Sequence record: ON871820
Reading direction: 5' to 3' (one strand)
Source: Escherichia phage vB_Eco-B1.1
DNA: 64,000 nt
The position numbers and the translations under genes were made by a program. Position 1 is the stretch's first letter, and every line of letters begins with the position of its first letter. Below the pieces are notes generated by a model. That model searched no databases and was not told the DNA's origin. It saw only the letters and a list, made by a program, of their open reading frames with translations. This document shows, piece after piece, positions 49,248-51,197 of the stretch.

Positions 49248-50279
49248 ATGTCATCAATACCTTGGATTGATAATGAGTTTGCGTATCGTGCATTAGCTCA
49301 TTTACCTAAATTCACACAAGTAAATAATAGTTCAACTTTTAAATTACGGTTTAGATGCCCTGTTTGTGGAGATTCAAAAACCGACCAGAATAAAGCTCGT
49401 GGATGGTATTATGGTGATAATAATAATGAAGGAAATATTCATTGTTATAACTGTAACTATCATGCACCAATCGGAATATATTTAAAGGAGTTTGAACCTG
49501 ATTTATATCGTGAGTATATCTTTGAAATAAGAAAAGAAAAAGGTAAAAGTCGTCCAGTAGAAAAACCTAAAGAACTTTCTAAACAACCTGAGAAGAAAAT
49601 AATTAAATCTCTTCCGTCATGTGTTAGATTAGATAAACTGACGGAAGACCATCCAATTATAAAATATGTAAAAGCTCGTTGTATTCCAAAGGATAAATGG
49701 AAATATCTTTGGTTTACAACTGAATGGCCTAAATTAGTTAATAGCATAGCACCAGGAACATATAAAAAGGAAATACCTGAGCCTCGTCTTGTTATTCCAA
49801 TTTATAATGCTAATGGAAAAGCTGAGTCTTTTCAAGGACGTGCATTAAAGAAAGATGCTCCTCAAAAATATATCACCATCAAAGCTTATCCTGAGGCAAC
49901 AAAAATCTATGGAGTCGAACGAGTTAAAGATGGTGATGTATATGTTCTAGAAGGACCTATAGATTCACTTTTTATTGAAAATGGTATAGCTATTACGGGT
50001 GGTCAATTAGACCTAGAAATTGTTCCATTTAAAGATAGACGTGTATGGGTTTTAGATAATGAACCTCGTCATCCTGACACTATTAAACGAATGACTAAAT
50101 TGGTTGATGCAGGAGAAAGGGTTATGTTTTGGGACAAATCTCCCTGGAAATCAAAAGATGTTAATGATATGATTAGAAAGGAAGGTGCAACCCCTGAACA
50201 AATTATGGAATATATGAAAAATAATATTGCACAGGGGTTGATGGCTAAAATGCGGTTATCTAAATATGCTAAGATTTAA
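49248..50279 (+). CDS. 61: gp61 DNA primase
   Basis: 343 aa; zinc ribbon CPVCGDSK...CYNC; Toprim region. Confidence 0.92.
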   Translation: MSSIPWIDNEFAYRALAHLPKFTQVNNSSTFKLRFRCPVCGDSKTDQNKARGWYYGDNNNEGNIHCYNCNYHAPIGIYLKEFEPDLYREYIFEIRKEKGKSRPVEKPKELSKQPEKKIIKSLPSCVRLDKLTEDHPIIKYVKARCIPKDKWKYLWFTTEWPKLVNSIAPGTYKKEIPEPRLVIPIYNANGKAESFQGRALKKDAPQKYITIKAYPEATKIYGVERVKDGDVYVLEGPIDSLFIENGIAITGGQLDLEIVPFKDRRVWVLDNEPRHPDTIKRMTKLVDAGERVMFWDKSPWKSKDVNDMIRKEGATPEQIMEYMKNNIAQGLMAKMRLSKYAKI

Positions 50280-50476
50280 ATTAACCCAACCAAAGCAAAT
50301 GCTAAATCTACGAATGTATCGAGAGTAATTACTGGAATATTAACGCCATGAGCAATAGCAATTGGTGATAAAACAAAATTCCAGAGTAAAATTCCTATCA
50401 TAGCAGAAATAGTAAAAGCTATACGTTTTTTATTACCTTTGATGGCATTAACAAGTGCCATTAATTTTTGTACCAT
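50276..50476 (-). CDS. small two-TM membrane protein on the minus strand
   Basis: strong SD TAAGGAGG 5 nt before ATG; convergent with gene 61. Confidence 0.5.
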   Translation of the reverse strand: MVQKLMALVNAIKGNKKRIAFTISAMIGILLWNFVLSPIAIAHGVNIPVITLDTFVDLAFALVGLI

Positions 50477-50546
50477 ATGTCCTCCTTATTGCTTTATATA
50501 TTTATTGTATAATTAATCTACTAATCCATGAATTGAAAGGATATAT

Positions 50547-51197
50547 GTGAATTACCAAAAAATTTACTCGGCTTTAATTACAAAAGCTAAATGCCGGCAT
50601 CTTGGCGGATATAAAGAACGCCATCATATAATTCCTAGATGTATGGGAGGAACAGATGGCAAAAACAATCTTGTTGAGTTAACTGCGCGTGAGCATTTTA
50701 TAGCTCATAGATTATTAACTAAAATATATCCAGATGTGAGAGGATTGCATTATGCTGTAAATTTAATGCGATATAATAAAGGTGTTAAATTAACAAGTAG
50801 ATTAATAGAAACCCTTAAAATCCAAAACTCCGTTCTTTTCTCGGGTGAAAATAATCCTAGATATGGCAAGCCGTCATGGATTAAAGGCAAAAAGACCCCA
50901 GAAGAAACTAAAGCCAAAATGCGTCTAGCTCATAAAGGTAAAATTATATCCGATGAAGCCAAGGCTAATATGAGTAAAGCCCGAAAAGGAAGATTTAGCG
51001 GTAAAAATTCACCTCGATATGGTTTACCAAATCCTAGGCGAGGAGAAATATGGAATAGTTATGATGCGCTTTATGAATTATGGGTTTATAATAATAGACC
51101 TAAACGCACAAAATTTAATAAAATAGCTGTCAAGGCAGGTTATCCTAATATCTGCTATAGACATATGATAGAAAACTTCATAAGAAAGGAAAAATAA
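50547..51197 (+). CDS. free-standing HNH homing endonuclease (mob-like)
   Basis: GTG start; HNH core ERHHIIPRCMGG...NNLVELTAREHFIAH; NUMOD-like repeats; C-terminal ELWVYNNRPKRTKFNKIAVKAGYP motif. Confidence 0.75.
   Translation: MNYQKIYSALITKAKCRHLGGYKERHHIIPRCMGGTDGKNNLVELTAREHFIAHRLLTKIYPDVRGLHYAVNLMRYNKGVKLTSRLIETLKIQNSVLFSGENNPRYGKPSWIKGKKTPEETKAKMRLAHKGKIISDEAKANMSKARKGRFSGKNSPRYGLPNPRRGEIWNSYDALYELWVYNNRPKRTKFNKIAVKAGYPNICYRHMIENFIRKEK

Follow-up and report, generated by a model that had tools for sequence, protein, structure and literature searches.

A putative Mob-family homing endonuclease gene ahead of gene 56 and a dam-less backbone as probable independent polymorphisms in the gene 61-56 interval of a T-even phage

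Introduction

The closest described counterparts of the locus reported here are found in T4, T6 and the RB phages. T4 MobE, encoded between nrdA and nrdB (Wilson & Edgell 2009, PMC2790892), and MobD have an N-terminal HNH domain in common with the protein described below. They also resemble it in being free-standing, in being located between conserved genes of nucleotide metabolism or replication, in forming promoter-less cassettes and in their sporadic distribution. Cassettes of this kind, which use upstream promoters, are common among the free-standing endonucleases of T4, and the start codon of mobA is predicted to be GUG (PMC2988022). The protein from our locus differs from MobE in its site upstream of gene 56, its carboxy-terminal NUMOD3 repeats and its GTG start codon, and is not a MobE orthologue.

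A second homing-type gene, segF, is likewise located beside gene 56, between 56 and soc (Belle et al. 2002, cited in PMC2988022). SegF targets gene 56 (PMC2988022), is present in some T-even phages only and is associated with localized gene 56 conversion. It is, however, a GIY-YIG and not an HNH enzyme, and its gene lies on the opposite side of gene 56. In T4 the gene order is 61, a 309-bp unannotated gap, dam, oriA/56, segF and soc, in agreement with an earlier note on the DNA studied here. T4 Dam is an N6-adenine GATC methyltransferase, of which no homologue was found in our sequence or in the genome of phage IME340. The phages most similar to ours in this region are T6 and RB32-RB33, which have the same gene order, an identical spacer up to the insertion point and no dam. 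Relative to these, our locus also has a block of 649 bp with the HNH gene, and its gene 56 opens with a foreign tract of 45 nt.

Results and Discussion

Layout of the gene 61-soc region

The sequence analysed, here called the window, is a stretch of DNA of 64 kb. From gene 61 to soc it contains the following features:

49248-50279, plus strand: gene 61, DNA primase of 343 amino acids (from the open reading frame listing; 98-100% identical to gp61 of T4 and RB33; IME340 is among the records that annotate it as DNA primase)
50276-50476, minus strand: dam.1, small hydrophobic protein of 66 amino acids, convergent with gene 61 (phrog_2024)
50439-50474, plus strand: terminator-like hairpin and T-run, antisense within the dam.1 coding sequence (consensus scan)
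50481-50488, minus strand: Shine-Dalgarno sequence of dam.1, TAAGGAGG (reverse complement), 4 nt before the ATG (sequence reading)
50488-50513, plus strand: candidate MotA-type middle promoter (same sequence in RB33; homology with the dam-56 spacer of T4)
50499-50505, minus strand: ATAAATA, late-promoter-like, 29 nt ahead of the dam.1 start codon, with 7 of the 8 bases of the T4 consensus TATAAATA
50535-50541, plus strand: GAAAGGA, original Shine-Dalgarno sequence of gene 56, now ahead of the HNH GTG (comparison of six phage junctions)
50542-51190, plus strand: inserted block of about 649 bp (presence/absence alignment against RB33 and against ELT1)
50547-51197, plus strand: HNH open reading frame of 216 amino acids with a GTG start, putative Mob-family free-standing homing endonuclease (phrog_655, NUMOD3, homology to MobE and MobD)
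51185-51197, plus strand: AAAGGAAAAATAA, Shine-Dalgarno sequence of gene 56, rebuilt together with its spacer (in RB33, GAAAGGAAAAATAATG)
51199-51243, plus strand: opening 45 nt of gene 56, co-converted and of Jiaodavirus type (site-by-site match counts)
51199-51717, plus strand: gene 56 (dCTPase/dUTPase), RB33-type allele (Pfam dUTPase_2 match)
51762-51769, plus strand: soc late promoter TATAAATA (motif scan)
51800-52045, plus strand: soc (Pfam Soc, 4.9e-53)
52052-52073, plus strand: terminator hairpin after soc (consensus scan)

Several of these elements had been pointed out in the earlier note and are borne out here. The 66-residue minus-strand reading frame converges with gene 61, the two stop codons overlapping by four shared nucleotides (50276-50279), and has its Shine-Dalgarno sequence TAAGGAGG; the GTG-initiated HNH reading frame downstream of gene 61 is confirmed at the limits given above; and the distance between genes 56 and soc, put at about 80 bp, measures 82 bp. 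The only content of this last spacer is the soc late promoter. No open reading frame is present between genes 56 and soc of the window, and segF is absent. The gp56 protein has 98% amino-acid identity to that of RB33 and 73% to that of T4.

We have high confidence that the interval combines two independent polymorphisms, both common among T-even phages: a dam-less backbone of the T6/RB33 kind and an HNH gene inserted by intronless homing. The backbone comprises gene 61, the convergent dam.1, a 70-bp spacer with the candidate MotA middle promoter, gene 56 and soc. Into it, a block of about 650 bp would have been copied during a mixed infection, when a DNA break was repaired using an endonuclease-carrying phage as the template. 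The HNH insertion is independent of the absence of dam, because phages without dam and without the HNH gene exist (T6 and RB33), as does a phage with both the HNH gene and dam (ELT1). The arrangement is an ordinary polymorphism that is already known and annotated, and has little significance beyond the tidying of annotations. It fits a picture of T-even accessory cassettes (dam, segF, soc.1/soc.2 and mob-like endonucleases) that are gained and lost independently of one another beside conserved genes.

Insertion site and expression signals

The junctions of the inserted block were compared in six sequences: the window, RB33, ELT1, T4, Jiaodavirus 15882 and Mineola. The spacer of the window (50477-50541) is the same as that of RB33, base for base, up to and including GAAAGGA, and the insertion point is located directly after this motif, between the Shine-Dalgarno sequence of gene 56 and its ATG. 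A direct repeat, AAAGGA, bounds the block (50536-50541 and 51185-51190). The window, IME340 and ELT1 all have the 649-bp block with identical junctions, and RB33 and T6 lack it. The junction, at which GAAAGGA is followed by TATATGTG, is also found downstream of dam in ELT1 and, when compared with the HNH-less Mineola, in Jiaodavirus 15882; the nucleotide of insertion is the same in the dam-minus window and in dam-plus ELT1. At the left junction of the insert, no co-conversion is observed.

Upstream of the insertion point, the candidate middle promoter is made up of a MotA box ATTGCTT (50488-50494), a 13-nt spacer and a -10 element TATAAT (50508-50513). The stretch ATTGCTTTA at 50488-50496 fits the MotA box consensus (a/t)(a/t)TGCTT(t/c)A, which is expected about 12-14 nt before a -10 element TAnnnT. 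From its sequence, this promoter would be the counterpart of T4 P(M)16.53, the driver of gene 56 and primer of oriA, the elements of which are annotated in entry X01416; here it is predicted to drive both the HNH gene and gene 56. The HNH gene may thus be seen as a promoter-less cassette, which would borrow the promoter of gene 56 and also its ribosome-binding site, the latter serving a weak GTG start. The last HNH codons would recreate a ribosome-binding site upstream of the essential gene 56, so that gene 56 would still be expressed. With its precise site, rebuilt expression signals and cross-genus tracts, the HNH gene before gene 56 makes a clean natural example of intronless homing.

The HNH protein

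The HNH protein matches phrog_655 ("homing endonuclease") with an E-value of 1.3e-59 and phrog_12434 ("HNH endonuclease") with 1.6e-12. The N-terminal HNH motif consists of ERHHIIPRCMGG and, further on, NNLVELTAREHFIAH, with ERHHIIPRCMGGTDGKNNLVELTAREHFIAH at residues 24-54; the Pfam HNH family (PF01844) is matched below its cutoff (E=0.035). Carboxy-terminal to the motif there are three repeats of Pfam NUMOD3 (29.5 bits against a cutoff of 20.4). The HNH assignment is based on phrog_655, on NUMOD3 and on the pattern HH..N..H that can be read in the sequence. In tblastn searches, the protein is 44% identical to RB59 mobE over 174 amino acids and 34% identical to RB3 mobD over 211 amino acids. 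Its orthologues are annotated as homing endonuclease or as mobE, the latter in VR5 and IME08. The Jiaodavirus orthologue shares the GTG start of the window; VR5 has ATG at this codon. A search of PDB sequences gave a spurious match only (E=0.15), and an NCBIfam match to IscB (E=0.01) was discarded as meaningless.

These similarities suggest a free-standing homing endonuclease of the Mob family, with a predicted nuclease activity. In genomes that do not have the HNH gene, its cleavage target is probably located in or near gene 56 or in the spacer upstream of it. The junction does not reveal where the target lies, because free-standing endonucleases often cut far away, hundreds of base pairs from their own gene (PMC2988022).

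It is unlikely, in our estimate, that the reading frame is instead the remnant of a gene that has decayed or been domesticated and has ceased to home, being either inactive or kept for the exclusion of competitors or for the tuning of gene 56 and oriA. Such a remnant might be expected from the weak GTG start and from the internally mosaic sequence, for many mob genes of T4 no activity has ever been demonstrated (PMC2988022, Table 1), and the insertion comes between the oriA promoter and the place, 22 nt into gene 56, where the origin of T4 lies. However, every orthologue examined has an intact reading frame and intact HNH residues, and purifying selection is observed across genera, with a pN/pS of 0.13 against the Jiaodavirus orthologue. 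The sporadic distribution, the DNA identity above that of the flanks and the co-conversion tracts, which differ in length between the window and ELT1, also speak against a remnant.

Donor lineage and co-converted tract

When the window is compared with Jiaodavirus, the HNH gene has 90% DNA identity, while gene 61 has 66%, gene 56 has 76% and soc 63%. The first 45 nt of gene 56 are identical to those of the HNH-plus Jiaodavirus 15882 (45/45), with 42/45 matches to the HNH-minus Mineola and 32/45 to RB33. From nucleotide 46 onwards, the match is to RB33 (44/45, against 22/45 for Jiaodavirus), which places the recombination breakpoint at nucleotide 45. In ELT1, the equivalent tract ends at around nucleotide 31 of gene 56. 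On these match counts, the donor lineage of the HNH gene is Jiaodavirus-like (a Klebsiella phage), since the first 45 nt of gene 56 travelled with the insert. The tracts of the window and of ELT1 differ in length, which indicates that HNH transfer or recombination took place at least twice, and the sporadic distribution, combined with an identity exceeding that of the flanks, indicates that the gene has been mobile recently.

Substitutions in codons 2-4 of gene 56 (ATGCCACATTTC) that are specific to HNH-plus phages were considered as a possible source of target-site immunity. This reading was downgraded: the substitutions are not in VR5, the tract is mostly Jiaodavirus-type sequence and free-standing endonucleases often cut at a distance from their insertion.

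We lean towards the joint proposal that the HNH element recently crossed phage genera by homing and that dam.1, treated below, is a genuine late-expressed small membrane protein. Such a crossing would link Klebsiella Jiaodavirus, E. coli Tequatrovirus and E. coli Dhakavirus, which have different hosts, and the 45-nt co-conversion scar it would leave in gene 56 would be datable. The HNH gene itself would be internally recombined, with a Jiaodavirus-like nuclease half and a Dhakavirus-like DNA-binding half. A review from 2010 reported no convincing evidence of homing endonuclease genes moving across such clusters (PMC2993671).

The minus-strand gene dam.1

Residues 2-66 of dam.1 align to positions 1-65 of the 65-position phrog_2024 profile (8.2e-31). 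A tblastn search with dam.1 matched 692 phage records, and in a spread sample of these nearly all annotated records have a primase gene under or beside the match. The name dam.1 is the one used in the RB33 and T6 annotations. T4 carries an intact dam.1, in which 63 of the 66 residues are identical or conservatively changed, yet its RefSeq entry leaves the gene unannotated. Across four Tevenvirinae genera, a reading frame of 63-66 codons is located at the same place, with amino-acid identities down to 27-53%, and the positional homologues in Mosig-, Dhaka- and Jiaodavirus share the core WN[FLY]..P.A..[HQ]G. These distant homologues were recovered by synteny and not by similarity searches: a scan of IMG/VR with dam.1 gave only five close loci, and a search of protein databases gave mostly relatives with at least 88% identity, plus two at 52-68%. 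There is no family for dam.1 in Pfam or NCBIfam. Because dam.1 is present in T2, T6 and RB33 as in T4, regardless of HNH or dam status, it is, judged by its sequence conservation, an old resident gene separate from the HNH insertion.

Purifying selection is also observed for dam.1: its pN/pS of 0.18 is the lowest among the six reading frames, and 14 of the 26 variable sites are third codon positions. A strong Shine-Dalgarno sequence precedes the gene in every lineage compared. The motif ATAAATA, of which there are only 11 in the whole window on both strands, is conserved upstream of dam.1: Tequatro-, Mosig- and Dhakavirus have it at -26 to -29, Jiaodavirus at -19 and -40. The scan found neither a canonical sigma-70 promoter nor a perfect TATAAATA for dam.1, only the conserved 7/8 core; this core may act as a late promoter, which suggests late expression. 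An AlphaFold model (pLDDT 76) contains three helices, formed by residues 2-12, 16-42 and 52-63. Hydropathy and the model agree on one helix of transmembrane length, the 27 residues 16-42, preceded by a stretch rich in lysine and arginine, while the carboxy-terminal hydrophobic helix is just 12 residues long and contains two aspartates; the two transmembrane segments given in the earlier note are not established. The product would be a small membrane-type protein. Transcription of its gene probably starts at a late-type promoter on the strand opposite to gene 61 and runs antisense into the end of that gene. The plus-strand hairpin within dam.1 probably terminates the gene 61 transcript; a "terminator" is annotated at this site in Yersinia phages fPS-2, fPS-90 and fPS-65.

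Could dam.1 be a chance reading frame in the 3' untranslated or terminator region of gene 61 that is never translated? Its omission from the T4 RefSeq annotation and from the Pfam and NCBIfam families would fit this, the hairpin inside it could itself constrain part of the sequence, and literature searches for dam.1 expression, or for ribosome profiling and unannotated small proteins of T4, found nothing relevant. Against this stand the conservation of length and motif in four genera, the substitution pattern, the Shine-Dalgarno sequence kept in every lineage with ATAAATA upstream of it, and the PHROG match, and we regard a chance origin as very improbable. As a conserved gene that is nevertheless missing from the T4 reference annotation, dam.1 merits an expression test.

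Absence and distribution of dam

With T4 Dam as the query, tblastn found nothing better than E=0.65 in the 64-kb window, against 5e-176 in the T4 control, and no window reading frame of at least 80 amino acids pairs (D/N/S)PP(Y/F/W) with FxGxG, the single FxGxG being a chance FQGLG within gp56. Both results agree with the earlier note, in which no dam-like gene was seen. The search for dam across a whole genome that had been called for was run on IME340 as a proxy, this being the closest phage with the same locus; the best 25-kb match to the window in the phage collection is 95.7-96.5% identical. No Dam homologue was found in the complete IME340 genome (tblastn, best E=1), nor is there a methyltransferase among its 260 annotated features. 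As the window and the IME340 genome are both without dam, the window phage is very probably Dam-less; for the remaining 100 kb or so of its genome, this extends what is seen in the proxy.

In T4, T2 and JB75, dam is located between dam.1 and 56. In T6 and RB33 the order is 61, dam.1, 56, with neither dam nor the HNH gene, and RB32-RB33 and T6 share this arrangement. The synteny comparison proposed in the earlier note (T4, T2, T6, RB33, JB75, ELT1 and IME340) reveals that the status of dam varies independently of the HNH gene. It is extremely unlikely that the dam/oriA segment was replaced through a break or gene conversion initiated by HNH, with gain of the HNH gene and the membrane reading frame and deletion of dam, a specific form of the endonuclease-mediated replacement supposed in the note: T4 does have dam in an interval where the window has none, the window has an HNH gene and homing endonucleases are known to co-convert flanking DNA (PMC2988022), but the dam-less spacer is identical to that of HNH-less RB33, ELT1 holds dam and the HNH gene with the same junction, dam-less, HNH-less genomes are common and far outnumber HNH-plus ones, the left junction is without any co-conversion, and dam.1, which had been counted as part of the remodelling, is already there in T4, T2, T6 and RB33 and in four genera whatever the status of HNH and dam.

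Two independent polymorphisms are therefore still the favoured description, and the suspected loss of Dam methylation holds only in part: the Dam gene is absent from the window and from IME340, but "loss" is probably not the right word, the dam-less state being more likely ancestral at the 61-56 locus, because it is seen in all four genera examined; the direction of gain or loss is assigned by parsimony only. A T4-type Dam with at least 90% identity is found in 182 records, corresponding to about 180 of the roughly 500 Tequatrovirus records, and dam.1 at the same threshold in about 500. The absence of dam is thus the majority state in Tequatrovirus and nothing special to the window phage. A 2-kb query is matched by 864 records; in a spread sample of these, large classes have a 1,350-bp span, with neither dam nor the HNH gene, and the arrangement of the window is found in only 31 records.

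Organization of the locus

The gene 61–gene 56 locus of the window, a Tequatrovirus (T4-like) genome segment, is nothing unusual: it combines two polymorphisms of types familiar from T-even phages, and dozens to hundreds of public genomes already carry each of them in annotated form.

Genes of the window from gene 41 to soc
46172–47599: gene 41, followed by dmd, 61.4, sp, 61.2 and 61.1
49248–50279, plus strand: gene 61 (primase)
50276–50476, minus strand: 66-aa ORF (dam.1)
50547–51197, plus strand: 216-aa ORF (HNH), GTG start
51199–51717, plus strand: gene 56
51800–52045, plus strand: soc

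The ORFs, convergent overlap, GTG start and short gene 56–soc spacer described in an earlier note were all found. The stop codons of gene 61 and dam.1 overlap, TAAGGAGG is located 4 nt 5' of the dam.1 ATG on the minus strand, and 82 bp separate gene 56 from soc. That dam.1 has two transmembrane segments, as the note states, is uncertain: hydropathy and an AlphaFold model (pLDDT 76) indicate a 27-residue helix and a C-terminal helix of 12 residues.

The region upstream of 61.1 is polymorphic. The window (48453–49079), T4 and phage ELT1 contain a 208-aa gp61.2, replaced by a 118-aa ORF of unrelated length in IME340, JB75 and T2 (L001 1527–1883; L005 527–883), which in T2 is labelled 61.2. In RB33 both are present, while IME340 has a 375-bp stretch without annotation between 61.4 and sp.

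The dam.1 gene

The dam.1 product matches PHROG 2024 along its entire length (8e-31). A tblastn search places dam.1 in 692 phage records: identity is at least 90% in about 500 (Tequatrovirus) and close to 50% in 189 (Mosigvirus and others). In sampled rows of these matches, the primase gene adjoins it in nearly all annotated records. Positional homologues of 63–66 aa are present in Dhakavirus (VR5, JS10) and Jiaodavirus (15882, Mineola), with the common core WN[FLY]..P.A..[HQ]G. Across 12 Tequatrovirus copies, dam.1 has a pN/pS of 0.18, the smallest value in any of the six reading frames; third codon positions account for 14 of the 26 variable sites. The sequence ATAAATA, of which the window contains only 11 copies on both strands, lies upstream of dam.1 and matches seven of the eight bases of the T4 late-promoter consensus TATAAATA; it is 26–29 nt 5' of the ATG in three genera and at −19/−40 in a fourth. 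Judged by sequence, dam.1 appears to be a real, old gene, probably encoding a late-transcribed small membrane-type protein. Transcription of dam.1 would continue into the end of gene 61 in antisense orientation; on the plus strand, the dam.1 coding region contains a terminator-like hairpin (50439–50464) for the gene 61 transcript. No expression data on dam.1 were found in the literature.

In T4, the 309-bp "gap" between 61 and dam includes an uninterrupted copy of this 66-aa ORF with almost the same sequence. Annotations of T2 list the ORF, and those of RB33 and T6 name it "dam.1", so it did not arrive with the endonuclease. In T4 it is located at NC_000866.4 17738–17938 on the plus strand (L003 4239–4439), and is unannotated both in the RefSeq entry and in KJ477685. 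In T6 (L022 2747–2932), ATT stands in place of the first ATG, and the annotated gene begins at a later in-frame ATG (61 aa); either the five amino-terminal residues would be dispensable, or a non-ATG start would be used.

Absence of dam

The earlier note was right both in seeing no dam-like gene and in its T4 map. A T4 Dam homologue was not found in the 64-kb window by tblastn (best E = 0.65; T4 control 5e-176), and a motif scan revealed no window ORF combining methyltransferase motifs. In T4 (NC_000866), the order is indeed 61, the 309-bp unannotated gap, dam, 56, segF and soc, with oriA annotated 22 nt inside gene 56.

Gene order between gene 61 and soc
T6: 61 – dam.1 – 56 – soc.2 – ORF029 – soc
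RB33: 61 – dam.1 – 56 – soc
T4: 61 – dam.1 – dam – 56 – segF – soc
T2: 61 – dam.1 – 181-aa ORF – dam – 56 – soc.2 – soc.1 – soc
JB75: 61 – dam.1 – 186-aa ORF – dam – 56 – soc
ELT1: 61 – dam.1 – dam – HNH – 56 – soc
Window, IME340 and about 30 other records: 61 – dam.1 – HNH – 56 – soc

T4-type Dam (at least 90% identity) is present in 182 records versus about 500 with Tequatrovirus-level dam.1, RefSeq/GenBank duplicates being counted in both totals; roughly two-thirds of Tequatrovirus are therefore without dam. Mosigvirus JK42, Dhakavirus JS10 and Jiaodavirus Mineola have gene 61, a small ORF and gene 56, with no dam, and on grounds of parsimony the locus was probably dam-less ancestrally. The closest relative here is IME340, with 99.1% identity across a 1,061-bp query that covers the locus and 651 of 651 positions identical in the HNH gene. 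Its complete genome contains no Dam homologue and no annotated methyltransferase, which suggests that the window's phage would lack Dam genome-wide. In T2 (L007 4868–5413) and JB75 (L006 2377–2937), the extra ORF of 181–186 aa makes the dam.1–dam interval a larger accessory cassette than that of T4.

The HNH protein and its insertion point

The 216-aa protein matches PHROG 655 "homing endonuclease" (1.3e-59) and PHROG 12434 "HNH endonuclease" (1.6e-12). It contains three Pfam NUMOD3 repeats above threshold and a visible HNH motif, ERHHIIPRCMGG..NNLVELTAREHFIAH, for which the Pfam HNH match is sub-threshold; a PDB sequence search gave no match. The nearest characterised relatives are the T-even Mob proteins mobE (44% identity) and mobD (34%). 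Orthologues with at least 80% amino-acid identity occur in about 59 records; those of Klebsiella Jiaodavirus are 92–93% identical and that of Dhakavirus VR5, annotated "mobE", 79%. In all loci examined, the HNH gene immediately precedes gene 56. A second Mob-like HNH ORF (31896–32750, plus strand, 284 aa, motif EAHHVLPKS...NLVNLSHFNHFKAH), directly followed by gene 46 (32766–34448), resembles the gene-56-linked protein at its carboxy-terminus, with an overall identity of 28%.

From the dam.1 start to GAATTGAAAGGA (50477–50541), the window is the RB33 spacer but for one substitution. Directly past GAAAGGA, which is the Shine-Dalgarno sequence of gene 56, the window reads TATATGTGAATTAC..., the start of HNH, and RB33 reads AAAATAATG, the start of gene 56. 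The last nucleotides of the HNH gene, ...AGAAAGGAAAAATAAcATG, restore a Shine-Dalgarno sequence for gene 56. These junctions define an insert of about 649 bp (50542–51190) between AAAGGA repeats. In ELT1 the same junctions follow an intact dam and a T4-type promoter, and Jiaodavirus 15882, compared with Mineola, has the same insertion point; the presence of the HNH gene is thus unlinked to the absence of dam. The proposed endonuclease-mediated replacement of dam is not supported, given the junctions shared with dam-plus ELT1 and the spacer matching HNH-less RB33.

The spacer contains a MotA box (ATTGCTT, 50488–50494) and a −10 element (TATAAT, 50508–50513) on the plus strand, homologous to the T4 middle promoter P(M)16.53. 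In T4 this promoter drives gene 56 and primes oriA; in the window its use is predicted, and the insert places it about 650 bp from the T4 oriA position. The ATAAATA of dam.1 (minus strand, 50499–50505) falls between the two elements, so that two predicted divergent promoters interdigitate within 26 bp (50488–50513), with ATAAATA kept in four genera. In VR5 (L017 2480–2515), the HNH ATG is just 6 nt past the TATAAT; its mRNA would be either leaderless or made from another promoter.

Free-standing endonuclease genes of T4 are often promoter-less cassettes that rely on promoters upstream and begin at weak or unusual codons, mobA for instance at GUG; SegF targets gene 56 from its opposite flank, and such enzymes often cleave DNA far from the gene that encodes them (PMC2988022). 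The anatomy of the window's HNH gene, as read from its sequence, fits a promoter-less cassette with a weak start.

Mosaicism

DNA identity between the window and Jiaodavirus 15882 is 90% for the HNH gene, versus 66% for gene 61, 76% for gene 56 and 63% for soc. The HNH pN/pS of 0.13 shows that the protein is under purifying selection. Over nucleotides 1–45 of gene 56, the window agrees with 15882 throughout (45/45), with HNH-less Mineola at 42/45 positions and with RB33 at just 32/45; from nucleotide 46 it is of the RB33 type (44/45, versus 22/45 for Jiaodavirus). In ELT1 the foreign tract ends near nucleotide 31. The two appear to be co-conversion tracts of unequal length, as expected of homing double-strand-break repair, and point to a Jiaodavirus-like donor. 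The HNH gene is itself mosaic: nucleotides 1–300 are about 96% identical to Jiaodavirus and 300–540 about 98% to Dhakavirus VR5. A 2010 review saw no convincing evidence of homing-endonuclease genes moving between such clusters (PMC2993671); at the sequence level, the locus offers a reasonable example of such movement, its sole mildly novel aspect.

Nucleotides 300–540 are only about 78% identical to the Jiaodavirus copy (window 50547–51197 compared with L019 2501–3151 and, for VR5, L017 2501–3157). Gene 56 is dimorphic in Tequatrovirus, the T4/T2 and RB33/window types sharing 70–73% amino-acid identity (L003, L007, L013, L015), and the gene 61 beside it is 98–100% identical.
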